Source: a virus
Taxonomy: Duplodnaviria > Caudoviricetes
Length of the DNA: 44,636 nucleotides
Direction: 5' to 3' (one strand)
IMG/VR virus record: IMGVR_UViG_3300030095_003343
Span: 1 to 44,636 of that record
The notes beneath the pieces are model-generated. The model had not been told where the DNA came from, searched no databases, and worked only from the letters and a program-made list of their open reading frames with translations. This document shows positions 1 to 15,856 of the stretch, in pieces. The number at the start of each line of letters is the position of its first letter. Position 1 is the stretch's first letter. A program made the position numbers and the translations under genes.

Positions 1-19
1 AGTTAGTTCAAGTGTTACC

Positions 20-90
20 GAAACCCTTACGGGTTTCATTGTATTGGCATGTTATGCATGCCCGTACATTGAAATGCATAAGCACTTCAA
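20..90 (+). promoter_or_regulatory. Structured intergenic element E0 (overlapping 1:2 / 2:3 / 3:4 hairpins) upstream of ORF 123
   Basis: GAAACCC-TTAC-GGGTTTC (20-37); long stem TTTCA.TGTA..GGCATG / CATGCC..TACA.TGAAA (34-74); TTGAAATGC-ATAA-GCACTTCAA (69-90). Followed by GAGGAACTAACAACATG. Confidence 0.7.
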
Positions 91-122
91 TCAAACTCAA
101 ACCAACGTGAGGAACTAACAAC

Positions 123-371
123 ATGTCTACGAACGATTCTTTCAATGTCGATAGCAACGGAGTCAAGCTTTCCATGTGCGGTGACCATGGAGGCATGGCT
201 GCTGTTAGTCGAGGCGACTTCGACTTCGCCCTTAACATTGGCGATGCGATTCAACACAGCGACTACTACGAGATCAGACTGAACGATGTCTGGTATCGAG
301 CAGTCATTGCGATCTCGCCTAACGCACCGCACGTCAATCACTACGATCCCATCGACCCCGATGAGGACTGA
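123..371 (+). CDS. Hypothetical early protein, 82 aa
   Basis: ATG with GAGG RBS, acidic C-terminus, flanked by structured elements. Confidence 0.75.
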   Translation: MSTNDSFNVDSNGVKLSMCGDHGGMAAVSRGDFDFALNIGDAIQHSDYYEIRLNDVWYRAVIAISPNAPHVNHYDPIDPDED

Positions 372-382
372 CATAGGCTGAC

Positions 383-470
383 TGTTTCAACATAGAGGGC
401 GCACGCCTAACAGCGTGTGCCCTTCATTGTTGATGCATGAAGTATCAACACAACGAGGTTAACTAACATG
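383..470 (+). repeat. Hairpin-RBS repeat family A, copy A1
   Basis: TGTTTCAACATAGAGGGCGCACGC-CTAACA-GCGTGTGCCCTTCATTGTTGATGCA, then TGAAGTATCAACACAACGAGGTTAACTAAC-ATG. Aligns with 824, 2021 and 3340. Confidence 0.9.
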
Positions 471-818
471 AAGAAGATCAACATCGACATCCAGACCGTT
501 GGCGGACGCAAGACCATCGAAGCGTGTCTGCCTAACGTAAAGAGCCGACTCGCTGTGCATCGAACGACCAGCGTGAGTGCTGGCCTAACGAAGGACGATG
601 GATGGACCGTCACTCACATCGCCAGCGGCATCGCTGTGAATCGCAAGATGCGAACCAAAGCGGATGCACTCCGCCTAGCACGAGCCTTCGCAAATGAACC
701 GGAGTGGGATCTGATCGGAGAGAATGGTGACATCTCCAAATTCCCTCGGTCTATTAGGCGAGCGATTCTCGCATTCGCAGAGAACATTAAATACGACCGA
801 CCACTCGTTAGGTTCTAA
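468..818 (+). CDS. Hypothetical early protein, 116 aa
   Basis: ATG at the end of A1 with GAGG RBS; LAVHR...WTVTHIASG motif of a kind common in small phage proteins. Confidence 0.8.
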   Translation: MKKINIDIQTVGGRKTIEACLPNVKSRLAVHRTTSVSAGLTKDDGWTVTHIASGIAVNRKMRTKADALRLARAFANEPEWDLIGENGDISKFPRSIRRAILAFAENIKYDRPLVRF

Positions 819-823
819 CCTAC

Positions 824-911
824 TGTCTCAACATAGAAGGCACACACCTAATAGTCTGTGCCTTTTATTGTTGATGCATAAAGTATCAACGCAACGAGGT
901 GAACTAACATG
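824..911 (+). repeat. Hairpin-RBS repeat family A, copy A2
   Basis: TGTCTCAACATAGAAGGCACA...TGTGCCTTTTATTGTTGATGCATAAAGTATCAACGCAACGAGGTGAACTAAC-ATG. Confidence 0.9.
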
Positions 912-1124
912 AGTATTGATGACCTTACGACCGAAGAGTGCATGACCCTTGACAATGAGACGCTTGAACTTCTCAATAAACATAGCGTGCAGGAGCGACA
1001 AGCTTTCGACTGGCACACGGCACTTGCTATGTGCAGCCAGTACTCAATCGAATCCGCAGATGGCTCCACCTTTAATGAGTATGTCGAGGATGATTTTAAT
1101 AACTCCGACGAACTCTTTCAGTAG
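909..1124 (+). CDS. Small highly acidic early protein, 71 aa
   Basis: ATG at the end of A2; D/E-rich with very few K/R. Confidence 0.75.
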   Translation: MSIDDLTTEECMTLDNETLELLNKHSVQERQAFDWHTALAMCSQYSIESADGSTFNEYVEDDFNNSDELFQ

Positions 1125-1151
1125 ACACCACCACCAACACGGAGAACTAAC

Positions 1152-2009
1152 ATGACTACTCGTAGCATCGACATCGACAACCTTCCGAGCAAAGCATTCG
1201 TAATCAAATCGATACGAGAGCAGTGGCATAACATTGTCGCAACGTCTGGATGCATCTCGGATGCAGAAGGATTCCTACCAGAAAGTACGATCAAGATATT
1301 AGGCGCATCGTACAAAACAGAGAAGAGTCTGAATGAACATGCATTCGAGGATGCGATGGGCAGGCTGTCCGCAGTGGTATACCTAGCACCAGCGGATCTA
1401 TCGGGTCGCGACGTGTGCCCATGCCGGACTAAGGAATGCACGATCCTATGCTTAGGCCGAACGTCTGGGCGCATGGTGATGACTCCTGTTAAGCAGTCGA
1501 TGGTATGGAAAACGGCACTGCGCTTCGGCGCACCGGATCTTTACTTCACGCTGTTATGCATAGAGATCAAAGCCTTGATTAAGAAAGCTAGGAAGCTTGG
1601 CCTAGCACCGAGGGTTAGGCTCGATGGCACATCGGACATCGGAGACGCCGAGAAGCTTTGCGAATTGTTTCCTGACTGCGGCTTCTACGAGTACACAAAG
1701 ATTGCTAGGCGAGCGCACCGCTGGCTCGACAAGCAGCCTAACCTTCGGGTGGCTCTGTCATTCACTGGCTACAACAAGACCGAGTGCATCGAATACATCA
1801 ACCGAGGTGGAGTGGTTGCAGTGGCGACTGACCTAACACGACACGATGCGAAGCCTTCAACTCATTGGGGTATCGATGTGATCGATGGGGACAAGCATGA
1901 CGATGTCAGTGCAGACCCTCGCGGATCTATCCGCATGCTTTCTTGGAAGGGTCCGCGCACCGGGCTTGATGTTGCTGGGGTATTCGCAGAACGAATCAAG
2001 GCTGCATAA
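1152..2009 (+). CDS. GP88-like / radical-SAM-like Cys-cluster phage protein, 285 aa
   Basis: GGAGAACTAAC RBS; motifs YLAPA..SG..VCPCRTKECTILCL, RLDGTSD, FYEYTK, VIDGDKHD, recognised from memory of the GP88-like family. Confidence 0.7.
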   Translation: MTTRSIDIDNLPSKAFVIKSIREQWHNIVATSGCISDAEGFLPESTIKILGASYKTEKSLNEHAFEDAMGRLSAVVYLAPADLSGRDVCPCRTKECTILCLGRTSGRMVMTPVKQSMVWKTALRFGAPDLYFTLLCIEIKALIKKARKLGLAPRVRLDGTSDIGDAEKLCELFPDCGFYEYTKIARRAHRWLDKQPNLRVALSFTGYNKTECIEYINRGGVVAVATDLTRHDAKPSTHWGIDVIDGDKHDDVSADPRGSIRMLSWKGPRTGLDVAGVFAERIKAA

Positions 2010-2020
2010 CAATACATTGA

Positions 2021-2109
2021 TGTGACAACGTAGGAGGCACATGCCGTTAGGCGTGTGCCTCTTATCGTTGGTGCAACGAAGTATCGACGCAACGAGGTGA
2101 ACTAACATG
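2021..2109 (+). repeat. Hairpin-RBS repeat family A, copy A3
   Basis: TGTGACAACGTAGGAGGCACATGCC-GTTA-GGCGTGTGCCTCTTATCGTTGGTGCAACGAAGTATCGACGCAACGAGGTGAACTAAC-ATG; compensatory changes relative to A1/A2. Confidence 0.9.
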
Positions 2110-2349
2110 AAGCTCACATACTGGTACGCAGAATGCCTTAACGATTCAGAATGCTACTCCATCAGGGAGAAGACAAAGAGCGCAGCCATCGCAGAGAAGG
2201 CAAGTCGCCACAACCCTGAAGACTATGGGCCAGTCATCAAGGTGACTGTCGAATACGACAGCGCGTTCAATCTAATGAAGGAGTGCAGCGACGAGTTCAG
2301 TATGCACTGGGAAGCACAGGCAACTCTTGCCATCAACGAGGAGAACTAA
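2107..2349 (+). CDS. Hypothetical early protein, 80 aa
   Basis: ATG at the end of A3. Confidence 0.75.
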   Translation: MKLTYWYAECLNDSECYSIREKTKSAAIAEKASRHNPEDYGPVIKVTVEYDSAFNLMKECSDEFSMHWEAQATLAINEEN

Positions 2350-2350
2350 C

Positions 2351-2764
2351 ATGAGTATCAAACGAGTAGACTTTGAGTACGCACTTAGCAAGGCGATCAG
2401 TGGAGCGATAATTGAGTTCTGCAATAAGAAGAAATGCGACCAGCCTGCAATCGATGCGCTGGTGGATGAGGCATGGCAATGCCTCAATGGAAAATCGCCC
2501 CACGCTTTGCAGCGCAAGCGTCGGGCGATCATCGAATGTGGGCAATCAGTTCACCCAGCGATTGCAGTGGTGAAGGATTACTTGCCCTCCAACTACACCG
2601 CCAAGGAAAGAATCGCTGGCTGGACATTGAGCGGCTACGCGGGAGCGTGCATCGAGATCGAAGGCTACGACATCGCTGGCTGGACACTCGATGACTATGT
2701 CATCCCTCGCCTAGCATCAGGCTTGATAGTTGCGACTGAGGTTTTTGACAATGACGAAGACTGA
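2351..2764 (+). CDS. Hypothetical protein with GYDIAGWTLDDYVIPRLASG C-terminal motif
   Basis: Start moved to ATG 2351 after GAGGAGAACTAAC; internal IAGWTL duplication. Confidence 0.75.
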   Translation: MSIKRVDFEYALSKAISGAIIEFCNKKKCDQPAIDALVDEAWQCLNGKSPHALQRKRRAIIECGQSVHPAIAVVKDYLPSNYTAKERIAGWTLSGYAGACIEIEGYDIAGWTLDDYVIPRLASGLIVATEVFDNDED

Positions 2765-2906
2765 AGCTGAAGCAAAGGCGGAACGCCTCAACGAACATGT
2801 TGGGTTGTTCTGCACCGTGACAAGGATCCTGCCTGTTAGTCAGGATCCAATCGTTCCGGGTGATGAGGGATGGGATGTTCTTGTCTCTGTCACCGTGGCT
2901 GATTAA
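2751..2906 (+). CDS. Small hypothetical protein, 51 aa (not in ORF track)
   Basis: Hand-translated MTKTEAEAKAERLNEHVGLFCTVTRILPVSQDPIVPGDEGWDVLVSVTVAD*; GAGGT RBS at about 2738. Confidence 0.6.
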   Translation: MTKTEAEAKAERLNEHVGLFCTVTRILPVSQDPIVPGDEGWDVLVSVTVAD

Positions 2907-3064
2907 CTAACGGGCTAGCTGATCACTAGTCCACCCACTTCGGAGCGACGGCACTGCTCCTACAAGAGAAAGGATGTTCACTTTGATTGATTCTAGGATT
3001 CGCATTGGCAAGTGCGGATCCCATGAATTTTTCAACTAACGCAGCACCAACGTGGAGAATGAAA

Positions 3065-3331
3065 ATGAATCTGTATCTGATCAAACGCAATGACCCGGCA
3101 GACGAGATCGACTACGACGAGTTCGTAGGTCATGTGATCGCAGCGCGTAACGTGAAGGATGCTAGGCGCTTTGCTGCTGACGAGCAGAGGCTCGACGAGT
3201 CACTGCGACGGACATGGCTCACGTCAAAAGAGGATAGACTTTGTTACCCGTGCTTTTCGACCGCCACTCTACTCGCGTCCGGCGTTGACCTTGAAGAAGG
3301 GATCGTTCTCTCTGACTTCAATGCGGGCTAG
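3065..3331 (+). CDS. Hypothetical early protein (MNLYLIKR...YDEFVGHVIAA...EGIVLSDFNAG)
   Basis: Start moved to ATG 3065 on RBS spacing; resembles a widespread small phage family ending in FNAG. Confidence 0.75.
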   Translation: MNLYLIKRNDPADEIDYDEFVGHVIAARNVKDARRFAADEQRLDESLRRTWLTSKEDRLCYPCFSTATLLASGVDLEEGIVLSDFNAG

Positions 3332-3339
3332 TAGCTAGA

Positions 3340-3406
3340 TGTTTCAACATAGAAGGCACACTCCATTAGGCGTGTGCCTTTTATTGTTGATGCACTTCGT
3401 ATCAAC
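3340..3406 (+). repeat. Hairpin repeat family A, copy A4
   Basis: TGTTTCAACATAGAAGGCACACTCC-ATTA-GGCGTGTGCCTTTTATTGTTGATGCACTTCGTATCAAC. Confidence 0.9.
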
Positions 3407-3432
3407 TAACGCAGCACCAACGTGGAGATAGA

Positions 3433-3792
3433 ATGTACAACTATCGAATGGTCAAAGACGGCAACTCATTCTCTGTCATGGAAGTTTGGTATGACGACTC
3501 GGGCAAGCCGGAAAGCTTTACCCCTGTCCGATTATCAGAACCCATCCATGAAGAACTTCTGAATGTAAAGTGCGAAGGCTGTGCCACTGACAAAGAGAAA
3601 GATGATGCTGCTCGTTTCCAGATCATCAAAGAACTAACAATGATCATAAACGATCTATCGAATGATGCGGCACCACTGATCAACAAGCGACAACAACAGG
3701 ATGTTAGGGTGGGGTCGAGCCCAGAGCAGATGGAAAGGTTAAGACAAGAGTTGTCAAACCAGCAGGGTAGCTGCAAAGGGGATGAATCATGA
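3433..3792 (+). CDS. Hypothetical protein, 119 aa
   Basis: GGAG RBS; N-terminal YNYRMV..EVWYDDSGKP motif; C-terminal peptide homologous to part of the 5276-6196 product. Confidence 0.75.
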   Translation: MYNYRMVKDGNSFSVMEVWYDDSGKPESFTPVRLSEPIHEELLNVKCEGCATDKEKDDAARFQIIKELTMIINDLSNDAAPLINKRQQQDVRVGSSPEQMERLRQELSNQQGSCKGDES

Positions 3793-3878
3793 TCGAATCG
3801 ATCATCACTGTCACTGCGTGCATGGCATTGTCGTATGCCCTCTGCCGCTTGGCTTCCAACAACTTCAAGGGGTATTAG
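3789..3878 (+). CDS. Putative 29-aa hydrophobic peptide
   Basis: ATGA overlap with the upstream stop; MIESIITVTACMALSYALCRLASNNFKGY*; abuts the next ATG. Confidence 0.4.
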   Translation: MIESIITVTACMALSYALCRLASNNFKGY

Positions 3879-4031
3879 ATGCCTGACATCAGAGTCACTG
3901 ACATCTTCAACTTCGTCGATGCGTATGCCAAGGCGGCAGGCGTTAAGATGACCGAAGAGTTGAGAGAGTGTGCCGCGAACGTCGTAGCCCATGACCTCAA
4001 CAAGGCTGGGGTGTACGTCGAACCTAGTTAG
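3879..4031 (+). CDS. Small hypothetical protein, 50 aa (not in ORF track)
   Basis: MPDIRVTDIFNFVDAYAKAAGVKMTEELRECAANVVAHDLNKAGVYVEPS*; AAGGGG RBS; fills the gap before element B1. Confidence 0.6.
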   Translation: MPDIRVTDIFNFVDAYAKAAGVKMTEELRECAANVVAHDLNKAGVYVEPS

Positions 4032-4037
4032 TAGAAC

Positions 4038-4104
4038 GAAGGGCGAACTCCCTTCCATCTATCGGTGTCCATTCATCAGTAGATGGAAAGGCGTTGTGTC
4101 TTTC
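4038..4104 (+). repeat. Structured element family B, copy B1
   Basis: GAAGGG-CGAACT-CCCTTC; long stem TTCCATCTA...TAGATGGAA; GAAAGGC-GTTGT-GTCTTTC. Homologous to 8794-8865. Confidence 0.8.
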
Positions 4105-4132
4105 ACTTAAACAACAAGAGGAACTAGTAATC

Positions 4133-5233
4133 ATGAAACTTTCTACAGATAACCTGAAGCCCCTATTGGAGTGCTCCTTCAGAGCGCAACTTGATCCTGA
4201 CAAGGTCAAGCTTAACAAGCAGCCCATCCTCTGCCTGCATGGCAACCCCGGCGTAGGAAAGACGGGAGTAGTGAAGGCTGTGTCGGACACGCTTGCCGAC
4301 ACGGTCGCGACTAACGAGTTCATCGGTTCGTCATACGGGACCGAGGACTTGGGCATCGGCGTACCTAACGCCGCAACCAAGCTGATCGATCAGTACAGCA
4401 CTGGCATTTTCTTGGGGAAGTTCCCCGGAACCGAGGATGCCGATCTCATCGTGATCTTCTTCGATGAGCTGGACAAGTACAGTGGTGACGTTCAAGCCAT
4501 GCTTCTCTCTCTCATCGAGAGCAGGAAGTTCCATGGCGAACTGATCGATCCTCGAATTGTCTTTGTCTGCGCCATGAACCCTGTCGATGGTGGCGGTGAG
4601 TCGGATCTCATTGCTCCATTGCATGAGCGCCTAACACACATCTCTTGCGAAGTTGACCCCGAAGCTTGGTGTGAGCTTGCAATGCAAAGCAATGTGCATC
4701 CTGCTGTTATCGGGTTCATCCACTGGCAGTGCTGTGGTAGTCACTCCGCTGCGGCGCTCAAGTCCTTGTCGAACTTTGACCCGGACACTTCTGACCTGAA
4801 CACCTCTTCGCCTCGCGCATGGTTCAAGGCGTCCACGTTCATCGAGGATGACTTGCCCCGTCCGCTTCTTCGCGAAGCACTGGCCGGAACTATTGGTGCC
4901 GTTGTCACTGAACAGTTCATGTCCTTCATGGACACATACCTAACAAACCCTCCGCCGACTCTCGATGAGATCATCGAGGATCCTCAGGGTGCAACCCTGC
5001 CTTCTGATCATGCGACTACGTTCGCTGTGATCTCCATGCTCGTTAGTTATGTGGCGAGCAAGGGAAAGCGGGCACGCAACAAGGACGCCATCAAGACGTT
5101 CGTTGTCGATGCCATCGTTGAGTACATCGAGCGGATCCCACATGAGGCTCACCGACTCGTCGCTATGCAGCAGTGCATGAAGGCGAACCCGCTGTTCGCA
5201 GAGAACAAGTCCGACATTCTGGCACGTTGCTAG
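4133..5233 (+). CDS. MoxR-type AAA+ ATPase
   Basis: Walker A GNPGVGKT, Walker B IFFDELD, sensor CAMNP, LHERLTH, SPRAW; ATG 4133 follows GAGG RBS. Confidence 0.9.
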   Translation: MKLSTDNLKPLLECSFRAQLDPDKVKLNKQPILCLHGNPGVGKTGVVKAVSDTLADTVATNEFIGSSYGTEDLGIGVPNAATKLIDQYSTGIFLGKFPGTEDADLIVIFFDELDKYSGDVQAMLLSLIESRKFHGELIDPRIVFVCAMNPVDGGGESDLIAPLHERLTHISCEVDPEAWCELAMQSNVHPAVIGFIHWQCCGSHSAAALKSLSNFDPDTSDLNTSSPRAWFKASTFIEDDLPRPLLREALAGTIGAVVTEQFMSFMDTYLTNPPPTLDEIIEDPQGATLPSDHATTFAVISMLVSYVASKGKRARNKDAIKTFVVDAIVEYIERIPHEAHRLVAMQQCMKANPLFAENKSDILARC

Positions 5234-5275
5234 TTCGTCGAACCCATCTGGACAAAATCAACTAGGAGTACAGAC

Positions 5276-6196
5276 ATGTCCAATACCAGTACTAGGATCA
5301 ACATCGAGGCAGGTAGCCTCCCTGATCGTTTCGTTCTTCGCAGGTTCAAGAGCGGCACGATGAGCGGATGGCGAACCATGAAGGAAGCTGGCCTAACTGT
5401 TGCCGAGGTTCATCAGATCTCTGATGCACGTCGAGCCAAGTCCAGCATCAACATCTTCGCAACGCCTGAACTGGAGGCGACGAAGAAGCACATGAAGCGT
5501 TGTCGGAACTTCTTCGACCACAGCAACATGTCGTGGGGAGACAACTGGCGACTAATCGCCAAGAGTAGGCTTGATCAGCAGTGGGAATGGGAGGACTCGG
5601 TTAAGACCGAGAACATGAACCTGTACCGTCTGGCGATTGAGTCTGTTAGGGATCGCAAGGAGCGAGACCGAATCGAACTGAGTGAGGGCGGGAAGGCCAG
5701 CCTCTACAATCCGGGCCTGTACCCAAGCGAGGAAGTGATGCTGGACTCGTATGTGTTCAGGTTTGAACCCGGCGTTGTCCCTGATCCGTCACGCGATGTT
5801 AGGTCTGGGTCAAGCCATGAGCAGACTGAGCGGTTCCGCAATGAGCTTGCAGACTCTTACAATCGTCAGGCTCGCGATGCCCACAACACGATGCTGAAGC
5901 GCATCATGGAAGAGGCTTCTCACGTCGAAGAACGGTGTGATGGTTACACCGGGAAGAGGGCAGGGTCTTTCAATGACACCCTGATCCCTCGCCTGATCAA
6001 CATTGCTCAGTTGGTTAAGACTAACAACATCTACGAGGATGATGATCTCGACAACCTCTGCTCTCAGGTGATGGATGATTACGCAAACATCACCACCAAA
6101 GATCTCAGAGAGAACGAGGATCTTCGGAGGGAGGCGAGCGGCAAGGCTCGCGACATCAAGGCTGCTCTCAACAAGCTGAAGTCCAGCAAGTACTAG
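5276..6196 (+). CDS. DUF3150-like helical protein of the MoxR-VWA module, 306 aa
   Basis: AGGAG RBS; YPS...PDP..DVR and NI..D.DL...DLREN..LR pattern; position between ATPase and VWA gene. Family call is from memory. Confidence 0.6.
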   Translation: MSNTSTRINIEAGSLPDRFVLRRFKSGTMSGWRTMKEAGLTVAEVHQISDARRAKSSINIFATPELEATKKHMKRCRNFFDHSNMSWGDNWRLIAKSRLDQQWEWEDSVKTENMNLYRLAIESVRDRKERDRIELSEGGKASLYNPGLYPSEEVMLDSYVFRFEPGVVPDPSRDVRSGSSHEQTERFRNELADSYNRQARDAHNTMLKRIMEEASHVEERCDGYTGKRAGSFNDTLIPRLINIAQLVKTNNIYEDDDLDNLCSQVMDDYANITTKDLRENEDLRREASGKARDIKAALNKLKSSKY

Positions 6197-6203
6197 TCTT
6201 GCA

Positions 6204-6240
6204 CTAAGGGGGGAGGGGCGTGGTGCCCCTCCCCTCTTGG
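6204..6240 (+). promoter_or_regulatory. Strong GC-rich intergenic hairpin without U-tract
   Basis: CTAAGGGGGGAGGGGCG-TGG-TGCCCCTCCCCTCTTGG between the DUF3150-like and VWA genes. Confidence 0.55.
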
Positions 6241-6264
6241 GCTTCCGACAACATGGAGAATCAA

Positions 6265-7575
6265 ATGATCAACCGACTTACCGATGAGCAACTCATTAGA
6301 TACTTCTGCAAAGTAGTATCCGACAATGGCTTTCTGGCACCCGTCGCATTTCGCCTAACTGTAATGACGGCTAGCGAATGGAATGGCAGGCCCGTCAAGA
6401 CAGCAGCAACGAACGGGGAGTACCTGTTAGTTAACCCTTATTGGGCTACGGATCTCACTCCTGCTGAGATCATGGGAGTGATACTCCATGAGATCTGGCA
6501 CGTCGCTGCTGGACATCCTTGGCGGGGGGTTGGGTACCCGCCTGACCAATCTAACATCTGCATGGATCATGAGGTTAACGGCTTCTGCCTCGACTCCGGT
6601 GCAACCCTTCCTAAAGATCGGATCTGGGATCCCAAGTACCGTGATTGGAAATTCGAGCGCATCTATGAGGATCTCTTTGGAACCCCTCCTGAGGAGAACG
6701 ATGATGACTTGATCGTTGAGCCTCCCGAAGGGGATGACAAGGGTGAGCAATGTGAGGAAGGGAAGCAACCTGAACAGGGTGAACAGGGTGACGAGTCAGG
6801 GCAAAGTGAAGACGCGGGTACTGGCGAGTCAGGTGCCGAAGGCCCCGCTTGGGGTGAGGTTTGGGATGCTAGTCACGAAGACGGCACGCCACTTACTGAA
6901 GAGGAGTGCCAGCAGGCACTGGGTGATCTTGCTGAGGAGATCATCCGAGGCGAGACTGATCGCATCCGAGCGGGCGATCAGGATGGGTACGGTGGTAGCG
7001 CGGTGATTGATCGTGTTATGCGTCCGAAGGCGAACTGGGCGAAGCGCATCTCTGCACTGGTCAAGAAGACCGGCAAGGTCATCGGCTCTACCTATCGCAG
7101 GCCAAGCCGGAGGACGATGGCGACCGGAGTCATCTCTCCGCACAAGATCAAGTCGAGCATCGACGAGATCGTGTTCGCAGTGGATGTCTCGTACTCGGTA
7201 GACATGGTTAGGCTGCGAGTCTTCTTCGATCATTTCGAGCGACTGCGTGAGACTATCTTCATCAAGAAGATTCACATCGTCCCGTTCACCACTGTTGCAA
7301 GCAACGATGCAGTGCAGGTAGTGAGGCATGGGCAGAAGCTTCCTCGCAAGTTCCAGATCGGTGGAGGCACTTCCTTCGCTCCGATCTTCAACTGGCAGAG
7401 ACGTTATGCCAAGCGGGCAGAGATGGTGATTGTCTTCACCGATCTCGGCTCCAACGATTACGGGCGCAAGCCGAAGTGCCCAGTGCTTTGGGTGTCCTCT
7501 GATCCAATCAACAATTACAATCGACCTCCGTTTGGTTCGGCAGTCGAGATCGATACAACTAGGAGGGGTTACTGA
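6265..7575 (+). CDS. Metallopeptidase + VWA domain protein (DUF2201-like)
   Basis: TAATNG, HEIWH (HEXXH), acidic G/E linker, MIDAS-like DVSYS, GGGTSF, VFTD; start moved to ATG 6265 after GGAG. Confidence 0.85.
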   Translation: MINRLTDEQLIRYFCKVVSDNGFLAPVAFRLTVMTASEWNGRPVKTAATNGEYLLVNPYWATDLTPAEIMGVILHEIWHVAAGHPWRGVGYPPDQSNICMDHEVNGFCLDSGATLPKDRIWDPKYRDWKFERIYEDLFGTPPEENDDDLIVEPPEGDDKGEQCEEGKQPEQGEQGDESGQSEDAGTGESGAEGPAWGEVWDASHEDGTPLTEEECQQALGDLAEEIIRGETDRIRAGDQDGYGGSAVIDRVMRPKANWAKRISALVKKTGKVIGSTYRRPSRRTMATGVISPHKIKSSIDEIVFAVDVSYSVDMVRLRVFFDHFERLRETIFIKKIHIVPFTTVASNDAVQVVRHGQKLPRKFQIGGGTSFAPIFNWQRRYAKRAEMVIVFTDLGSNDYGRKPKCPVLWVSSDPINNYNRPPFGSAVEIDTTRRGY

Positions 7576-7817
7576 TGAGTGTCAAGTTTCAAAACTCATT
7601 CAATAAAGAGCGTTACGCCGAGTGCAATCTATGCGGCGAAGGCTATTGGGGATATGACATAGAAATATACATGGATGATGTGGTGACGCGGGACGAAAGC
7701 TTTTTATTCTGCCATGAGCATGTCCGAGAGGCTTCGAGGAAGGCTAAAGACACAAGCTTATTGACATCGACTGAGATTGTTAGGCTCGTTAATGCATTAA
7801 GAAGAGAGGATGACTGA
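7575..7817 (+). CDS. Hypothetical protein with CxxC ... CxxH (possible zinc finger)
   Basis: TGATG overlap, AGGAGG RBS, CNLC and CHEH. Confidence 0.65.
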   Translation: MSVKFQNSFNKERYAECNLCGEGYWGYDIEIYMDDVVTRDESFLFCHEHVREASRKAKDTSLLTSTEIVRLVNALRREDD

Positions 7818-8011
7818 TGCCGTTGGCACCGCGCGCTCGTTGGGATAAAAGAGTGGGGGATTGGAATGTGATATGGATCGCAGAAGATGAGGACGGAGTA
7901 ATAAGGAGGTATGCAAGATCCGCTAAGGATCTAAGTGAAATGACTAAGCTCTTGGCAGAAGCATTCGAGTACGGCGCAGAAAGCGTGCAGTTCAAGAAGG
8001 TGTGGGAGTAG
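7817..8011 (+). CDS. Hypothetical protein, 64 aa
   Basis: TGATG overlap with the upstream gene; GAGGA RBS. Confidence 0.6.
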   Translation: MPLAPRARWDKRVGDWNVIWIAEDEDGVIRRYARSAKDLSEMTKLLAEAFEYGAESVQFKKVWE

Positions 8012-8013
8012 CA

Positions 8014-8226
8014 ATGAGATACGGAAAATTTGAATCAATGAAATTAATTCAACGTCACAACACTGATTGCGGTGTTTGGGATTATGAATTCATGGCAATG
8101 GAAGTTCAGTTAGGGAAGGACAACGCAGTGTTAGTTAGCTGGGATTCAGGTGAGACATGGGAGGAGGATCCGTGCGCTGACTTCTATCCATTCGCAGGAA
8201 GGATCACCTATGTCCTACCGGAATAG
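8014..8226 (+). CDS. Hypothetical protein, about 70 aa
   Basis: ATG 8014 after GGAG; packed within the operon. Confidence 0.55.
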   Translation: MRYGKFESMKLIQRHNTDCGVWDYEFMAMEVQLGKDNAVLVSWDSGETWEEDPCADFYPFAGRITYVLPE

Positions 8227-8428
8227 TGGAAACGGAAAAGTTATGTGCGATGCGATCTACCCTGAAGGTAGTTGCAAGGAAGAGGCGAGGGTAGAGATAC
8301 TCTCTCGTGACTTCTACACAACGGGGATGAAGGTTGTTGTTATGTTCTGTTTTGATTGTGCAAATGATGCAATCAGCAGCGGGATGTTTGAACCAGTGAT
8401 TGATAAAGATATCGAGGAGGCAGGGTAA
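8210..8428 (+). CDS. Small Cys-rich hypothetical protein
   Basis: ATG 8210 after AAGGA; four Cys (CD..SC..FCFDC). Confidence 0.55.
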   Translation: MSYRNSGNGKVMCDAIYPEGSCKEEARVEILSRDFYTTGMKVVVMFCFDCANDAISSGMFEPVIDKDIEEAG

Positions 8429-8784
8429 TGGACAAGATCATTCTAGTTTCATTGATGATGTGTGTTGGGTGTGCTTCGACTGGGCCAGCTCAGGTTAACC
8501 CGTGCAAGGAAAGAAGCTTTGATGAGTGGCTTTCCTACTATGACTTAAAGACTAAGGCCAACAGCACATGGCCTGAAAAGTACGGGCCTGCTTTCTTCTG
8601 GCTAGAAGATGTCGCCCATGCTTGTTACCCAGACAGGTTTGATCACGAGGTAGAAGAAGTCGAGGATGAGCCAGCACACAGCACTCGCTGTCGAGACCTG
8701 CCTTCAGCAGACCTTGAGCCTAGCTACATAGCAGAGTGTGACCTTCTCGTTTCCGAACCTTTCGATGAGATCAAGATGGACTAA
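8428..8784 (+). CDS. Putative lipoprotein, 118 aa
   Basis: MDKIILVSLMMCVG-C: basic residue, hydrophobic core, lipobox-like Cys; GAGGAG RBS. Confidence 0.6.
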   Translation: MDKIILVSLMMCVGCASTGPAQVNPCKERSFDEWLSYYDLKTKANSTWPEKYGPAFFWLEDVAHACYPDRFDHEVEEVEDEPAHSTRCRDLPSADLEPSYIAECDLLVSEPFDEIKMD

Positions 8785-8793
8785 GCAGAAACC

Positions 8794-8865
8794 GAAGGGC
8801 TGACGCCCTTCCATGTATGCATGTTAGGTTGTAACATGTGTACATGGATAGGCGTCTTGCTTATC
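8794..8865 (+). repeat. Structured element family B, copy B2
   Basis: GAAGGGC-TGAC-GCCCTTC; long stem TCCATGTATGCATGTTA-GGTTG-TAACATGTGTACATGGA; GATAGGC-GTCTT-GCTTATC. Confidence 0.8.
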
Positions 8866-8889
8866 AAAACTACTTGAGGATATTACAAC

Positions 8890-9591
8890 ATGAAGTTCAT
8901 CGAACTAACGCAAGAACCTTGCTGGAGTAATGACAAGAGTGTCGCATACGAAGCACCTGACTCAGTGGCCTTGACTGAGACGCATAATGGCAAGATGAAA
9001 AACATCAGGATATTCGTGCCAAACTCCATGATCTCAGAGAGGGATGGGGATAGCTACATCTCTTCATGGCTTGTCCAGAAGAAGAGAATTCAACTCAAGA
9101 ACTTGGGCTATCCAGAGCATTCAGTTGACCAATTCTTGGATGGACTTGCCTTCGGAAAATCATTCGAGAAGGACGATGAACGCTTTAAGCTTGTGAAAAT
9201 CTTTGACTTCCTAGACAAGGCCAGCGCGAACCTTGATACACCCAAGATGATATTCGACACCTCGTTCGGGAGACTAAAGATTAACCGAGCGGGATCGAAG
9301 TCTAAGCACGAGGGCAAGATCTTTGTCACCAACGGAGGGGATTGGGGATCTGAAGATCGACTCTACTACGGTGCCATTGATCTGTCTGGATTGTACACGC
9401 CAACTAACATCGTGACCAAAGAGATCAAAGATTTTCTTTTGGAAGTCAATGAGGATCCTGAAGGATTCACAACAAAGTCCGGCAAGACATCCGGCAACTG
9501 CTGCTTTTGCCAGAGGGCACTTACGACTGAGAGAAGCAAGGAAGCAGGATACGGACCCGGATGCTCTGGTAAGTACGGAATGAAATACTAA
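8890..9591 (+). CDS. DUF6011-domain protein, 233 aa
   Basis: C-terminal GNCCFCQRALTTERSKEAGYGPGC matches the DUF6011 pattern C..CGR.LT...S...G.GP.C. Confidence 0.8.
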   Translation: MKFIELTQEPCWSNDKSVAYEAPDSVALTETHNGKMKNIRIFVPNSMISERDGDSYISSWLVQKKRIQLKNLGYPEHSVDQFLDGLAFGKSFEKDDERFKLVKIFDFLDKASANLDTPKMIFDTSFGRLKINRAGSKSKHEGKIFVTNGGDWGSEDRLYYGAIDLSGLYTPTNIVTKEIKDFLLEVNEDPEGFTTKSGKTSGNCCFCQRALTTERSKEAGYGPGCSGKYGMKY

Positions 9592-9602
9592 CACGAAGGA
9601 GA

Positions 9603-9770
9603 ATGAAAATGCGTAGAAAGGGAAGAGTGGTCAGGGTTATCACAGAGGCTACTGCTGGTAGTCACGGGAAAGCCGGGGGGAAGACGATTCAACTAGCCAC
9701 CTACAAGAAAGTTCCCGGTAGAGGTTCGACTAACCCTCGCAACAGGAAGTCGATGAAGTCTAAGCGTTAG
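9603..9770 (+). CDS. Small very basic protein, about 55 aa (not in ORF track)
   Basis: MKMRRKGRVVRVITEATAGSHGKAGGKTIQLATYKKVPGRGSTNPRNRKSMKSKR*; AAGGAG RBS (true start may be ATG 9609). Confidence 0.6.
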   Translation: MKMRRKGRVVRVITEATAGSHGKAGGKTIQLATYKKVPGRGSTNPRNRKSMKSKR

Positions 9771-9778
9771 GCCGACCA

Positions 9779-9855
9779 GCACCCGTAGCTCAGTTGGATA
9801 GAGCGACTGCCTTCTAAGCAGTGGGTCGCAGGTTCGAGTCCTGCCGGGTGCGCCA
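9779..9855 (+). tRNA. tRNA-Arg, anticodon UCU, with encoded CCA
   Basis: Acceptor GCACCCG/CGGGTGC; D arm GCTCAGTTGGATAGAGC; anticodon arm ACTGC-CTTCTAA-GCAGT; T arm GCAGG-TTCGAGT-CCTGC; G discriminator then CCA. Confidence 0.97.
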
Positions 9856-9878
9856 CTAACTTGAATGGAGAAAAAAAT

Positions 9879-10169
9879 ATGAGATTCGATGGTGAAGATT
9901 ACGTCCCGCCGCGAGACAATCCCAGACTGACATCGCAACACCAAAGATTGCGCTCGCTTATGCAGGACGGGGAGTGGAGAACTCTCCGTGAGATCGCCCA
10001 GCAAACGGGAGATCCTGAAGCATCAATGTCAGCGCAGCTCAGGCACCTCAGGAAAGAACGATTCGGAGGGCATCAGGTTGAGCGACGACACGAGGGCGGC
10101 GGGCTATACGAATACAGGGTGATGACACTCAGTAGCCCTACCCTCACGGAAGGAAGGAAGGATAAGTAA
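9879..10169 (+). CDS. Winged helix-turn-helix DNA-binding protein
   Basis: LMQDGEWRTLREIAQQTGDPEASMSAQLRHLRK..FGG...LYEYR; ATG 9879 after GGAG. Confidence 0.8.
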   Translation: MRFDGEDYVPPRDNPRLTSQHQRLRSLMQDGEWRTLREIAQQTGDPEASMSAQLRHLRKERFGGHQVERRHEGGGLYEYRVMTLSSPTLTEGRKDK

Positions 10170-10171
10170 GC

Positions 10172-10438
10172 ATGGGAAAAGTAAAGGACATGGACTCTCG
10201 CGAATATCGAATGGCTCAGATGAGCGACCTAATCTCGGATATATCCTCTGCGATAAATCAGTTAAGCATAACGATGAGAAGACTATCCGACATGCAAGAG
10301 GAGTTCGACGAAAGAACCCGGAGGGAGTCGGAGGTTCAGTCAACGATTGATAATAGTGAGTTCACCAAAGACTTAGGCAGGATGATAGACGATGCTTTTG
10401 TTAGGGAACTAGGCCAGAGGTCACAAGGTAAGATCTAG
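10172..10438 (+). CDS. Hypothetical coiled-coil protein, 88 aa
   Basis: ORF track; heptad-like helical sequence; operonic spacing. Confidence 0.6.
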   Translation: MGKVKDMDSREYRMAQMSDLISDISSAINQLSITMRRLSDMQEEFDERTRRESEVQSTIDNSEFTKDLGRMIDDAFVRELGQRSQGKI

Positions 10439-10509
10439 TTAAGTGTTAGTCGCTGTGCTACATTGGCAACTAATTCAAACAAAACCTACAAAGGTAAGGA
10501 GTTAAATCA

Positions 10510-10689
10510 TTGGACGCTGCTCAAAGACAATTGGTAATATCACTACCAAAGAATCGCGGAGAAGAGATGAAGACCGCACTCAAGCAGGTAGCCCAGAAGG
10601 ATCACCGGACGGTAAGTAATCTGACGTTCAGAATTCTCCAGAGCTGGCTAGAAGAGAACGGTCACATACCGGAAGAGCGTCAAGACTGA
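10510..10689 (+). CDS. Ribbon-helix-helix (Arc/CopG-like) regulator, 59 aa (not in ORF track)
   Basis: TTG start after TAAGGAG; QLVISLP (strand), EEMKTALKQVAQKD (helix), HRTVSNLTFRILQSWLEENG (helix). Confidence 0.75.
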   Translation: MDAAQRQLVISLPKNRGEEMKTALKQVAQKDHRTVSNLTFRILQSWLEENGHIPEERQD

Positions 10690-10704
10690 GGGGGGGTGGG
10701 TAGC

Positions 10705-10938
10705 ATGAGGGATGAAACTCTAAATGACTTATTGAGGATGATACCCGACTTGCGTTTCAAGTCTGTCATCGCACTGTCATCGGGCGAAAGCCTCTATGCT
10801 ATCGAGCAGGCCCTTGAGTCTGAACTAATACAATTTGTTCAGATGAATGGGGAGAGTGAATCCCTACAGTATGTGGTTGATTACATCATTTTAGATATAT
10901 CAGATAAGCATGGCGGGGATATCTGCTTGCCGAATTAA
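10705..10938 (+). CDS. Hypothetical protein
   Basis: ORF track, start moved to ATG 10705. Confidence 0.5.
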   Translation: MRDETLNDLLRMIPDLRFKSVIALSSGESLYAIEQALESELIQFVQMNGESESLQYVVDYIILDISDKHGGDICLPN

Positions 10939-11248
10939 GAGGGAGAGTAATTTGTTTTCGGTAATGAACACGGAAAAAGAAATCGTGATGCAACTAGATT
11001 CTATCCGACCGAGCGAATCAGATGGCGAGGAGGAGTGCCAACAGCCAGAGTCAATACTGGTATGCTCAGATGGTAGTGTCATCGTTGGATTAGGATCGAC
11101 TTTGATTGATGTTATTTACTGGTATCCATGCTTTGAGATGATCCCATACTTTTTGGAATCACAATTTGACATAGACCAATATGTGGCCTGCGAACCAACA
11201 GTGAAGGAGTTATCGACTCATCACTTATTAGTCGGACCACTTCAGTAA
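10910..11248 (+). CDS. Hypothetical acidic protein (start uncertain)
   Basis: ORF track; ends immediately before the terminator. Confidence 0.5.
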   Translation: MAGISACRIKRESNLFSVMNTEKEIVMQLDSIRPSESDGEEECQQPESILVCSDGSVIVGLGSTLIDVIYWYPCFEMIPYFLESQFDIDQYVACEPTVKELSTHHLLVGPLQ

Positions 11249-11249
11249 G

Positions 11250-11288
11250 AAAAGGCCCCACCAGTTAATTCTGGTGGGGCCTTTTTTT
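11250..11288. terminator. Bidirectional rho-independent terminator
   Basis: AAAAGGCCCCACCAG-TTAATT-CTGGTGGGGCCTTTTTTT between convergent genes. Confidence 0.9.
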
Positions 11289-11289
11289 G

Positions 11290-11814
11290 TTAGAACTGAG
11301 AAGCAATAACCCTTCTTGGGTCTCGGTAACGATCAGTCCTGTAGTGCCTAGACAAAGTCTTTAACGATGGAGCCAAGAGCTTCGACGCAACTTGAGCAAA
11401 CTCCTTCCGTTCAGATTTCTTGCGAGGGAACTGATGGGCAGAGTCGATGAACTTCATCAGTATGTTCGCCCTTCTCTCACCGCAACCATTGACCACGGAC
11501 CTATAGGCATTCGAGAATGCCATCCGCCTCTCAGCCATATGGTTGGCTGACTTCTTAGCTGGCTGATGGACGCCATCAGAGTCTAGAGAAGGACTTGATA
11601 TGTACATGCCAGACTTAGAGACATCCTCCATGAATAACACGGAAGCCTCATGCAGAGGCTGCTCTATCAAAAACTCAACAAACATAACATCAAAGATTGT
11701 CTGGTCGGAAACCTTAACCCTCTTGATGTACCCCTTTATATCGACAGACTCCTCAGTCAATAAGAACTTATCGCGCTGTTCGTCGTTGACTAGTATCTCA
11801 GATATCAAAGTCAT
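11290..11814 (-). CDS. Hypothetical protein, about 174 aa
   Basis: 3' part of ORF 11290-11991; likely ATG at 11814 overlapping the helicase stop region. Confidence 0.65.
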   Translation of the reverse strand: MTLISEILVNDEQRDKFLLTEESVDIKGYIKRVKVSDQTIFDVMFVEFLIEQPLHEASVLFMEDVSKSGMYISSPSLDSDGVHQPAKKSANHMAERRMAFSNAYRSVVNGCGERRANILMKFIDSAHQFPRKKSERKEFAQVASKLLAPSLKTLSRHYRTDRYRDPRRVIASQF

Positions 11815-13579
11815 CGAAGTTTTCTTGCGGCGCTTTCGAGAACTCCTTGGCATGCACACCCCCACTGTAGTCAACTGAGAAATTACCGTTATGCGGATTG
11901 AAGTGAAGCTCACAGTCCCCAACGGAACCAATCCAAGGGAATCGAGCCTTCCAGCACCTGAGCTTGGAACTACCTTCATCCATTCGATCAACCGTTAACC
12001 CTGCATCAGCAATGTTGAAGAACGCCGACGAACCTGCGACATCGTAACCACTGGGAGATGGTGTACTCCCATCCGGTGCCCGATACATCTTGGTTGGGTG
12101 AGCGCATAATATCACTGCACAGTCATGCTCCTCTGCGAATTGCTTCAAGCCAACAAGAAGTTTGTTGATCTGCAACACACCCTCTACGCCATCCTCTGCC
12201 GTAGTGAGGAAGTTGTACGGATCAATCTGGACAATGCGAGCCCCTGTCCTCATGATAGAGATTGCAGCCCTCTCAAGGACAGAACTAATGGAGGTATCCG
12301 ATGTATCCAGAAAGGTGAAGTTGTTCTGGACCCAGTCGAGGGCAATGTCTAACTCACCCTTCGACATCTTGTACTCACCGTGGAATGGCTTGCCCAAGTA
12401 GACTGCCGCCATCTGTAATACATGTATCTCGGTTGGAGTCTCCGCTGAGAGGATGACTGAGCCCCACCCGGTACGACTAGCAAGATTGACTGATAGCCAT
12501 GTAAGAAATGAACTCTTACCTGAGCCGGGTATGCCAGTCATAATCGTTAGGGTTTGCGGGTTCACACGATAGATCTTGTCCAGATCAGCGATGCCCATCG
12601 AGATACCCCTATCCATACCTCCCTCGAATAGCGAGACAGCAGACTCTCTGAATTCCTTAGCATCCCTAATGCCACTGACAGGCCAAGGCGTAGCTCTGAT
12701 CAACGTACTAGCTAATGCGTCCTTGCCCAGCCTGACGAGAACATCATTAGCATCCTTGCACCCGTCATCATAAGAGACAACCCAGCACTTACCCCTGCCG
12801 ACCCTTCTTACAATCTCCTCGGCAAGGAGAACCCCCGGCTCATCGGAGTCCGTCGCGATGATCACTCTGTCTGCGATCTCAATCTTATCCCTAGCACTCA
12901 GTAAGTACTCGTACTTCCTAGACGAGGTGCCTGTGCTGGGCTTATTGGGAGCGCCGCTAGGAACACTTACGGCGTACACGCCTACCTCTCGATAAGAGAG
13001 CGCGTCCACCTCCCCTTCGCAGATAACCAAGTCACCACCATCGAAGTTCTCGATGCCCCACAGTTCCTTGGCCGCGCCTGTCTGACTAAAGTTCTTCTCC
13101 GTGTCCCGCCACTTAACAGCAGTACTCCCGTCGGAGTGGTTGTACTTGAATCCAATGCATTCAACTTCCTCCCCTCGACCTCTCATCCAAACATTGGAAC
13201 AGACCAAGTCCGCGAGCGAGGCAGTCTCCTCAGAGATCGCTCGCTCTTTAGATAACCACTCAATGTACTCACTGGAGATAGGTAGATACTCAACATCCTC
13301 CCCGTCTTTCTTTGATGCATTGTCTATAGAAATAACATTCGTCTCTTTCAAGCTGTATTCGTATTCCATATCTGCCCCCCTACCAAAGTTAACCCTCCCT
13401 TTCTCGTCGCAATGATGACAGAGGAATAGTGCGTGATCATTCTCGACCCTCACGCTCAACGTCCTCTCCCCCTGCTTTCTCCTGTCTGGACCGCAAGAAG
13501 GACAAGCGGACCTTACGTTACGATTCGTTCCTTGAGGAATGATACTACTGTTAATAAACTCAGCGATTGCGCTGTTCAA
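11798..13579 (-). CDS. Bifunctional DNA primase-helicase (T7 gp4/Twinkle-like)
   Basis: Zn-binding CPSC...CHHC; TOPRIM ICEGEVDALS, DSDEPG, KDAND; SF4 helicase GIPGSGKS, IDPYN, AHPTK, KARF. Confidence 0.93.
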   Translation of the reverse strand: MNSAIAEFINSSIIPQGTNRNVRSACPSCGPDRRKQGERTLSVRVENDHALFLCHHCDEKGRVNFGRGADMEYEYSLKETNVISIDNASKKDGEDVEYLPISSEYIEWLSKERAISEETASLADLVCSNVWMRGRGEEVECIGFKYNHSDGSTAVKWRDTEKNFSQTGAAKELWGIENFDGGDLVICEGEVDALSYREVGVYAVSVPSGAPNKPSTGTSSRKYEYLLSARDKIEIADRVIIATDSDEPGVLLAEEIVRRVGRGKCWVVSYDDGCKDANDVLVRLGKDALASTLIRATPWPVSGIRDAKEFRESAVSLFEGGMDRGISMGIADLDKIYRVNPQTLTIMTGIPGSGKSSFLTWLSVNLASRTGWGSVILSAETPTEIHVLQMAAVYLGKPFHGEYKMSKGELDIALDWVQNNFTFLDTSDTSISSVLERAAISIMRTGARIVQIDPYNFLTTAEDGVEGVLQINKLLVGLKQFAEEHDCAVILCAHPTKMYRAPDGSTPSPSGYDVAGSSAFFNIADAGLTVDRMDEGSSKLRCWKARFPWIGSVGDCELHFNPHNGNFSVDYSGGVHAKEFSKAPQENFDDFDI

Positions 13580-13865
13580 TATTCGCCACCTCCATAGTTA
13601 ACCTCTTCATCATATCTGTACATTGATTCGCGATACTAGACCTCGCTGGGCCTGAAATGTCATCGACCCTCATGAAGACATCTTCAACCCATTCCATTTC
13701 CCAGCCAGCAACTTCACACATCATGTTGAAGTCGTCGCTATGCACCCACACCATTACTTTCTCTTGAACTTCTCCTGATCCATTGCCCAAATCCTTGAGT
13801 GCGAAATGGATGACACGCCGAGCGAGTCTTGAAATTCCGGCAGTGGGCGCACAATTATCTCGCAT
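13560..13865 (-). CDS. Hypothetical protein, 101 aa
   Basis: ORF track; VI..ALKD...W..S.DF..MCEVAG pattern seen in small phage proteins. Confidence 0.6.
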   Translation of the reverse strand: MRDNCAPTAGISRLARRVIHFALKDLGNGSGEVQEKVMVWVHSDDFNMMCEVAGWEMEWVEDVFMRVDDISGPARSSIANQCTDMMKRLTMEVANIEQRNR

Positions 13866-14197
13866 CGAGGGTTTCTCCTATCAAGTCCCCAAAGCGCCAT
13901 CGACGCCTTGACTTGACGATCATTGTTGTATGCACGTCCTTGCAATAGATCTTGAACCAGATCGATACACGCAAGATCCGGCCTGCGGCTCGCGTACCAG
14001 ACATTGACTTGCAGGGAGACATCGCAATCGAATGGCTCTTCCATGCCAGGGCATTGTTCATCAAATCCCTTTGAATAGTCCAAAGCCTTCTTTGACTTGA
14101 TGATCCTTGGACTTCCATGAATCTTAATGATCCTCCTCTGGTTCTTGGCGCTAGCTGGCTCACCCTGAATAACACAACGAAATTCGTTTTCCACCAT
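13754..14197 (-). CDS. rusA: RusA-like Holliday junction resolvase
   Basis: IQGEPASAKN, RRPDL, DLLQG..Y.NDRQV, DRRNPRCEI. Confidence 0.8.
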   Translation of the reverse strand: MVENEFRCVIQGEPASAKNQRRIIKIHGSPRIIKSKKALDYSKGFDEQCPGMEEPFDCDVSLQVNVWYASRRPDLACIDLVQDLLQGRAYNNDRQVKASMALWGLDRRNPRCEIIVRPLPEFQDSLGVSSISHSRIWAMDQEKFKRK

Positions 14198-14246
14198 TGC
14201 AATAACCTTTTAAGTAACTAACATGCTTTTAACTTAACGAAAGGAA

Positions 14247-15134: not shown

Positions 15135-15148
15135 GAGGAGAGTAAGAG

Positions 15149-15856
15149 ATGGCAGCAAAAAAGGCTGACGCAACAAAAGAAAATCCCACACCTAGGGAGG
15201 TATGGGAAACACTAAGCTCGATCAACGTGAACGAGCATACAGAGTCAAAGATGAACTTGACCTACTTGTCGTGGGCGTGGGCATGGAAAATCCTAAAGGA
15301 TAACTATCCGAATGCAGCGTATGCTTTTCAAGCATGGGGAGATAGTAATAGCCATGTGGATTACATGAAGTACCCCGACGAAACTGGGGCAGTTCAATGC
15401 ACCGTCTACATAGGCAATCTCGTAAAGGAATCTATGTGGTTGCCAGTGATGGATAATCGTAACAATGCCATCAAGAACCCCAATGCAAGGCAAATCTCAG
15501 ATGCTAAGATGCGATGCCTTGTTAAGTGCATCTCGATGCTTGGCCTTGGCCTGTACATTTATGCAGGTGAAGACTTGCCGGATGACCTATCGCCGGAACC
15601 GGAGAAGCAGGTTAAGCCCAGCAAGGCCGATCCTAAGCCCAAGGTTGTCGAGCAGATCCCTGAGGTTGGCGAAGAAGACAAGGTCACGCTGACCTTTGTC
15701 GAGTTTATCAAGGAAGCCGAGACGGTTGATTCACTCAAGGAATTCTTCAGGGATAACCGCGAGGTGATTGATCAAATCGAGGTCACGAAGCCCGACGAGC
15801 ATGCCCTCATCATGAAGGCTTTCTCGGCTAAGAAGAAGCAAATACTTGCCGCCTAG
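15149..15856 (+). CDS. Sak/Rad52-like single-strand annealing protein (DUF1071)
   Basis: LTYLSWAWAW, WLPVMDNRN, MRCLVKCI..GLGLYIYAGEDLP. Confidence 0.9.
   Translation: MAAKKADATKENPTPREVWETLSSINVNEHTESKMNLTYLSWAWAWKILKDNYPNAAYAFQAWGDSNSHVDYMKYPDETGAVQCTVYIGNLVKESMWLPVMDNRNNAIKNPNARQISDAKMRCLVKCISMLGLGLYIYAGEDLPDDLSPEPEKQVKPSKADPKPKVVEQIPEVGEEDKVTLTFVEFIKEAETVDSLKEFFRDNREVIDQIEVTKPDEHALIMKAFSAKKKQILAA

Follow-up and report, generated by a model that had tools for sequence, protein, structure and literature searches.

Conserved two-state RNA structures between early genes of an uncultured phage, candidate RNase III sites whose products would refold at both ends

In phage T7, the early-region site R0.3 lies between a non-coding leader and the first gene. 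Here we describe three elements, E0, B1, and B2, which occupy gaps between early genes of an uncultured phage known from IMG/VR virus record IMGVR_UViG_3300030095_003343 (Duplodnaviria; Caudoviricetes). The window, as we call it here, spans all 44,636 bases of this record, whose completeness is about 76%. The closest described systems are the sites R0.3-R1.3 of the T7 early region and the Bs-RNase III sites of phage SP82. E0 is placed like R0.3, the likeness being one of layout. What sets the present elements apart is that each strand of the lower helix has a second, conserved partner, which predicts a new hairpin on both cut products. Judged by covariation among homologs, E0, B1, and B2 are conserved two-state RNA structures. 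On modeled cutting and folding, we consider it probable that host RNase III processes the transcript at these sites, after which the cut products would refold, separate, and cap both ends. RNase III sites in phage early regions are known, as are one-sided caps; the two-sided refolding design would be a variant of the T7 and SP82 type, with cleavage predicted.

RNase III cuts often start decay via bare ends, and hairpin caps have been described in several settings. Single RNase III cuts leave 3' hairpins (PMC3867540), RNase III processing of the Staphylococcus aureus cspA 5' untranslated region leaves a 5' hairpin (PMC3386247), caps have been proposed for the Escherichia coli pflB, ahpC, and yajQ RNase III sites (PMC5371410), and the 5' stabilizer named for SP82 early mRNA is the ribosome binding site (RBS; PMC7509114). 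The cspA case is one-sided, concerns a single cellular leader, and also frees the RBS, whereas here the RBS lies outside all pairings and the upstream product is predicted to be capped too. The E. coli sites are separate sites with one proposed cap each, and the accessible part of that report presents no repeated family and shows no covariation. The PeSL cassettes of the T4-type phages RB49 and phi1 combine a repeated intergenic stem-loop and a Shine-Dalgarno (SD) sequence with a variable early region and gene shuffling; PeSLs hold sigma70-like promoters and act as terminators (PMC2839356). In a PeSL-like manner, the first gene after E0 differs among relatives of our phage, and one contig has no gene between copies 1 and 2 of a second repeated element, family A. 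The promoter and terminator of PeSLs were, however, not found in E0 or the B elements, and none of six promoter-like matches from a simple consensus scan of positions 1-12000 fell within an element. A search of the open literature found no site at which both products refold via conserved overlapping hairpins; this negative is a weak one, most older phage papers being outside its coverage.

Each element consists of four segments that can pair either as two short hairpins (1:2 and 3:4) or as one long helix (2:3; Table 1). The short hairpins, of 6-7 bp, each use one strand of the lower half of the long helix (about 21-28 positions), and both meet at the helix centre. A sequence-only reading of this DNA had reported three elements that begin with CGAA and have short hairpins, a long stem, an A/C-rich spacer, and GAGGA, and all of these were found where it had placed them; among the homologs described below, CGAA opens 11 of 11 B copies and five of eight E0 copies. 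That reading had missed that the loops of the two short hairpins also belong to the long stem and that segments 1 and 4 can pair too. It had also taken E0 and the B elements to differ in sequence, which is not wholly so: they share a core, T[CG]TA / TA[CG]A-T[GT]-G, although the window's E0 is recognized only weakly by the B model (15.7 bits, E value 0.35). In this core, T[CG]TA of the 5' arm pairs with TA[CG]A of the 3' arm, which is followed by T[GT] and then by the G that opens 3:4. In predicted folds, B1 and B2 each form one long hairpin, and the window's E0 forms three hairpins.

Table 1. Coordinates of the elements, family A copies, and neighboring features in the window
Feature	Position	Strand	Remarks
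E0	20..90	+	1:2 hairpin 20-37; long helix 26-82; 3:4 hairpin 71-88, extending to 69-90; opens the early cassette array
E0, predicted staggered cuts	39/40 and 70/71	+	
A/C-rich spacer, GAGGA (109-113), and start codon after E0	91..125	+	Outside all pairings
First early open reading frame (ORF) after E0	123..371	+	82 amino acids (aa), no family; gene in this slot varies among relatives
Family A copy 1	381..470	+	Long helix with one extra nucleotide on 3' arm; 3:4 from 429; no 1:2
Family A copy 2	822..911	+	3:4 hairpin from 870
Family A copy 3	2019..2109	+	3:4 hairpin from 2067
Family A copy 4	3338..3435	+	3:4 hairpin from 3386
B1	4038..4104	+	1:2 hairpin 4038-4055; long helix 4046-4095; 3:4 hairpin 4086-4104
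B1, predicted cuts	4057/4058 and 4085/4086	+	
A/C-rich spacer, GAGGA (4118-4122), and start codon after B1	4105..4135	+	
AAA ATPase (AAA_5, phrog_1297) after B1	4133..5233	+	Heads a block ending in the DUF2201 gene
B2	8794..8865	+	1:2 hairpin 8794-8811; long helix 8802-8856 with 2x2 mismatch; 3:4 hairpin 8847-8865
B2, predicted cuts	8813/8814 and 8846/8847	+	
Spacer, GAGGA (8876-8880), and start codon after B2	8866..8892	+	
DUF6011-containing ORF after B2	8890..9591	+	
Hairpin between A- and T-runs	11244..11291	.	Convergent genes on either side; likely bidirectional terminator

Folding energies were compared with those of 200 dinucleotide shuffles, a check that the sequence-only reading had proposed, and the z-scores were -4.7 for E0, -3.9 for B1, and -5.8 for B2. 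The short hairpins might still have been a chance by-product of the long stem, as that reading had allowed. We therefore kept the long-helix part fixed and swapped the outer 14 nucleotides (nt) for random early-region sequence in 3000 draws. The p values for the 5'/3' hairpins were 0.001/0.040 (E0), 0.055/0.033 (B1), and 0.007/0.025 (B2), and over 17 copies p was below 0.05 at 30 of 34 flanks, which speaks against such a by-product. A sequence-free structure descriptor, tuned on E0, B1, and B2 themselves, recovered these three from the 44.6-kb window together with one weak + strand match at 10872, and it matched nothing on the - strand; when run on 509 Markov-resampled sequences of 11.3 kb, it gave one match in 12 and two in none. 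The match at 10872 overlaps coding sequence and does not fold in this way, and it was taken as chance. The product hairpins of E0, B1, and B2 have energies of -10.3/-4.5, -8.2/-7.8, and -12.3/-8.4 kcal/mol, respectively; none of seven other long hairpins of the window forms both product hairpins as strongly, the best reaching -5.3/-5.4 kcal/mol. At the gathering threshold, Rfam models matched only tRNA in positions 1-17500 of the window and in 10 related loci.

Homologs were gathered by alignment of the ATPase, which gave 24 loci from 531 candidate metagenome-contig stretches and one from IMG/VR, and a family A pattern added two contigs. A short B pattern matched 24 stretches in IMG/VR, none with a strong B-model score at the pattern. 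With identical copies counted once and the window's own included, there were 19 copies: eight E0, five distinct B1, five distinct B2, and one B-like. The E0 1:2 hairpin was left out of the covariation count because its loop length shifts the alignment. Relatives with 64% identity carry a third hairpin type before the ATPase gene (L032:1247-1300 and L034), in which a long stem is directly followed by a 6-bp hairpin; it lacks the B core and offers no anchor, and it was excluded from the counts.

Both states covaried in these homologs. In the long helix, two-sided changes were found at 8 of 22 pairs of the B alignment (11 rows; two of them loop-loop pairs), with none of 500 shuffles scoring as high, and at 8 of 26 pairs of the E0 alignment (6 rows), where none of 500 shuffles matched it in cells paired or in covariation score. 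The B short hairpins were 94% paired with two-sided changes at 3 of 14 pairs (reached by 2/500 shuffles on covariation score and by 120/500 on pair count), and the E0 3:4 hairpin was 93% paired with two-sided changes at two of seven (14/500 shuffles). The 1:4 pairing showed no two-sided change and was rejected as a selected helix. One helix position is unpaired in all 11 B rows and one in all six E0 rows, and the same bases pair in both short hairpins. The covariation of both states, together with a mismatch kept where the short hairpins pair, indicates that both folds are under selection and that the short hairpins win at the positions of conflict. Selection on the architecture, suggested earlier from the window, is thus borne out in the homologs, and the lack of conservation that would have spoken against it was not observed. 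Short RNAs in which evolutionary evidence supports two exclusive folds are uncommon.

The alternation of 1:2/3:4 with 2:3/1:4 is also the pattern of a cruciform, and the elements could in principle be a DNA-level signal, that is, cruciform-like or single-stranded hairpins serving cassette recombination, DNA entry, or a protein. Consistent with this, genes beside E0 and family A swap, the early region shows an excess of the pentamer CTAAC/GTTAG in both orientations, and the phage has RusA-like and Sak-like genes. We nevertheless regard a DNA signal as highly unlikely. On the gene strand of the upper helix, G-U outnumbers A-C by 23 to 4 (the copies not being independent), which points to RNA; in addition, orientation and spacing to the RBS are fixed, the B copies stand at fixed loci, and no tyrosine integrase was found in the record. 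Sites of attC type were rejected, no integrase having been found in the incomplete record.

We propose the following course of events. The early region would be one long transcript, in which RNase III would cut both strands at the helix centre, leaving a 2-nt 3' overhang and releasing a hairpin of 25-33 nt. The lower duplex, weakened by the conserved mismatch, would then be displaced by 1:2 and 3:4, so that the products separate. The upstream RNA would then close with a hairpin and a tail of 2-4 nt. On the downstream mRNA, a hairpin would begin at nt 1-2, ahead of an open RBS; the end hairpins would slow 3' exonucleases and 5'-end-dependent decay. When a 2-nt staggered cut was placed at the common core, the hairpin of the downstream piece began at nt 1 in 14 of 17 copies and at nt 2 in the other three, and the upstream piece ended in a hairpin with a tail of 2 nt in 12 copies, 3 nt in four, and 4 nt in one. 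Two E0 copies that were found later and held out agreed with this register. The geometry of a self-capping processing site, first suggested from the window alone, finds support in this placement of the predicted cuts. A functional role for the released small hairpin, suggested at the same time, fared poorly, its length (25-33 nt) and sequence varying among E0, B1, and B2. If processing of this kind is true, a 70-nt element would let a phage slice one early transcript into stable, independently translated units with the host enzyme alone; this would explain why genes swap here as cassettes and would provide a compact insulator part for synthetic operons.

RNase III engages about 22 bp, and its cuts have 2-nt 3' overhangs (PMC6212723); the chief rule for binding is that G-C at positions D/D' (position 2 of the proximal box) acts as an antideterminant (PMC1540722, PMC6212723). 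In the 19 copies, the helix reaches 8-13 positions above the register and 12-15 below it (20 in one copy), so that about 22 bp are centred on the predicted cut, as in a bacterial RNase III double-cleavage site. In agreement with this rule, position D is U-A in 19 of 19 copies, and D' is U-A in 13 and U-U in six, never G-C. Registers were also scored with the E. coli in vivo 24-position pair matrix (PMC6212723 Table S4), which also takes in the distal box (UA/UG in the minimal substrate), against 3000 threaded stems; a matrix for E. coli may not hold for the host of the phage. The best register was the predicted one in six of six B2-type copies (p 0.002-0.023). Overall, the matrix speaks for B2, and for B1 and E0 its verdict is neutral to mildly unfavorable.

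The same cut-and-refold geometry would result if the cuts were made not by RNase III but by Mini-III, or by a phage enzyme recognizing the T[CG]TA core. A conserved core sequence at the register speaks for such an enzyme, as do the E. coli matrix, which fits E0 and B1 no better than random stems, and the incompleteness of the record. On the other hand, no RNase III-family gene was found in the record at its present completeness, a scan of 30-35 early ORFs named none as nuclease-like except DNA enzymes, and helix length, D/D' content, and the bulge rule (see family A below) fit RNase III. We hold another nuclease to be quite improbable.

In intact RNA, the long state is predicted to be favored in 11 of 17 copies, tied in one, and disfavored in five (range -3.8 to +7.9 kcal/mol). 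After a double cut, the two hairpins are predicted to beat the best duplex in 13 of 17. This balance raises a reading that is partly compatible with RNase III processing and capping, in which a near-isoenergetic three-hairpin state blocks processing and the long helix permits it. Folding kinetics, or a ribosome that finishes the upstream gene and covers segment 1, would set the fraction cut, and the short hairpins would have been selected mainly as competitors before the cut, not as caps. The two states do lie within the range given above, 1:2 is transcribed first, and in all 12 of the B copies segment 1 begins 6-10 nt past the stop codon of the upstream gene, though these genes differ; because the upstream ORFs end so near, we grant a ribosome-gated variant a modest chance. 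Yet no gene precedes E0 (in relatives, a stretch of about 1.45 kb before it has no conserved ORF), short gaps are usual in compact phage genomes, a gate does not need hairpins that end exactly at the staggered register, and the energy gap is not constant among copies. Taken together, a gated switch appears unlikely. A composite seems rather unlikely as well. In it, a single double cut by RNase III would set off a strand-displacement switch that ejects and caps the two products, and beforehand those hairpins would gate cleavage, tipped by a ribosome terminating 6-10 nt upstream of segment 1. If true, mRNA segmentation would be coupled to translation, the same genome would hold a matched single-nick version (family A), and the design would be a general, overlooked one of phage early operons.

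The elements might also remain uncut, serving as pause sites, weak terminators, or decay barriers that insulate the next RBS. They are stable intergenic hairpins, and E0 1:2 and family A copy 1 score as terminator-like. However, the T-run after the helix or after 3:4 is at most 3 in 19 of 19 copies, in line with the lack of a U-tract seen earlier in the window, terminator-like matches numbered 14 compared with 9.5+/-3.7 in shuffles, and a single state would suffice for such roles, yet two exclusive states covary. We judge uncut structures to be very improbable. Absence of a U-tract after 3:4 also led us to reject a transcription attenuator or intrinsic terminator. Attenuators resemble the elements in having four segments with mutually exclusive pairing; in contrast to them, there is here neither a U-tract nor a common leader peptide, and the 2:3 helix is long, is in register, and takes in both loops. 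The absence of a leader peptide, likewise claimed from the window, was confirmed in that the upstream ORFs differ (29-130 aa), end at the short distance given above, and have no conserved counterpart before E0. A translational switch was rejected because the SD sequence is outside all pairings and its predicted accessibility is similar in intact and processed RNA.

Several results weigh against the proposed processing by RNase III and capping of both products. With respect to energetics, the three-hairpin state, which is no RNase III substrate, is predicted to be the more stable in five of 17 intact RNAs, and the long state of the window's E0 is disfavored by 3.6 kcal/mol (a one-base variant at position 78, present in L054 and in a contig of run X1, shifts E0 to +1.4); after cutting, the duplex wins in four of 17. 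With respect to chance, the 5' hairpin misses 0.05 in six of 17 copies when flanks are shuffled within their own copy, and the descriptor also passes on the - strand in five related loci and gives 15 matches in 124 kb of unrelated loci. The copies stem from about three lineages, so that counts overstate independence, and related sequences can beat shuffles without structure. More distant relatives have a family A element, another hairpin type, or none that is clear in the ATPase slot, which implies that B1 is replaceable. As for the register, its central position is partly forced by helix length. The E. coli matrix, subject to the reservation about the host, places the best register at -1 in five of five B1 copies and at -1 to +4 in E0, with p of 0.28-0.52 for E0 and B1, and best-register scores beat threaded stems at p<0.05 in only one of 17. 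A cut at -1 would weaken 3:4 to -1.5/-3.3/-3.9 kcal/mol, and cuts at 0 to +4 would keep it.

Family A provides an internal comparison. The sequence-only reading had likened it to E0 and the B elements in its 2:3 versus 3:4 logic. Among 27 distinct copies only the downstream half was shared (3:4 significant in 21), an upstream hairpin was found in two, and family A was rejected as a four-segment element. One extra 3'-arm base stands at the register in 26 of 27 copies, directly before the G that opens 3:4; D' is A-U in 27 of 27 and D is A-U in 22 of 26. In T7 and SP82 substrates, a bubble in the stem restricts cutting to the downstream side, and paired stems are cut on both (PMC1935012). Family A may thus be a single-nick version, in which the bulge would direct a cut of the 3' arm only and the upstream RNA would keep the top stem. 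With the top stem retained in this way, 1:2 would be needed only where the top is excised, which matches the observed pattern. Bulged one-cap and paired two-cap designs in one genome would allow a direct test of single- versus double-cut rules.

On a contig of run X1, family A copy 1 is joined to copy 2 and the intervening gene is absent (window 407-883), which fits cassette loss or gain at repeats. An imperfect long hairpin (2985-3033; z-score only -1.8) precedes the gene at 3059; the spacer and RBS after it are those that also follow family A copy 4. A 16-bp purine/pyrimidine hairpin at 6204-6240, between the gene for a 306-aa protein and the DUF2201 gene, is kept with sequence changes in relatives; it has no overlapping flank hairpins.

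Positions 1 to about 11,250 of the window hold small + strand ORFs, a GP88 gene, the AAA ATPase gene, the DUF2201 and DUF6011 genes, and a tRNA-Arg gene, and the hairpin at the end of this region is likely a bidirectional terminator that closes the + strand early unit. Further downstream are primase-helicase, RusA-like, Sak-like, and virion genes, the virion module including a 2780-aa ORF on the - strand (19052-27394). Matches to cultured phages have about 30% identity or less, and the hosts of these are mixed. An IMG/VR search with the protein next to B2 found no relative. The tRNA-Arg(TCT) gene (9779-9855) is conserved in four related loci, and no identical genome copy of its exact sequence was found. 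A looser tRNA pattern led to one tRNA with several differences in a metagenome-assembled genome of Gemmatimonadales, in which the primase had no match.

In relatives, the 1.45 kb upstream of E0 lies beside a divergent gene. It contains a block of 140-175 nt that is 78-90% conserved (L028:200-400, L037:3373-3573, L041:779-979, L052:4300-4500). This block folds, with two-sided changes at seven of 40 pairs in four sequences, and has no Rfam match; it is a candidate for a leader RNA that a cut at E0 would release.

The pentamer CTAAC/GTTAG, in its two orientations, occurs 16 times against 2.6 expected and six times against 1.6 expected in positions 1-3500, and 14 and 15 times against 4.2 expected in 3500-11200; past 11300 there is no enrichment. 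It is possibly a DNA-level binding site in the DNA that enters first. In family A, CTAAC/GTTAG also makes up the apical loops, in either orientation, and it does so in the window's B2 too.

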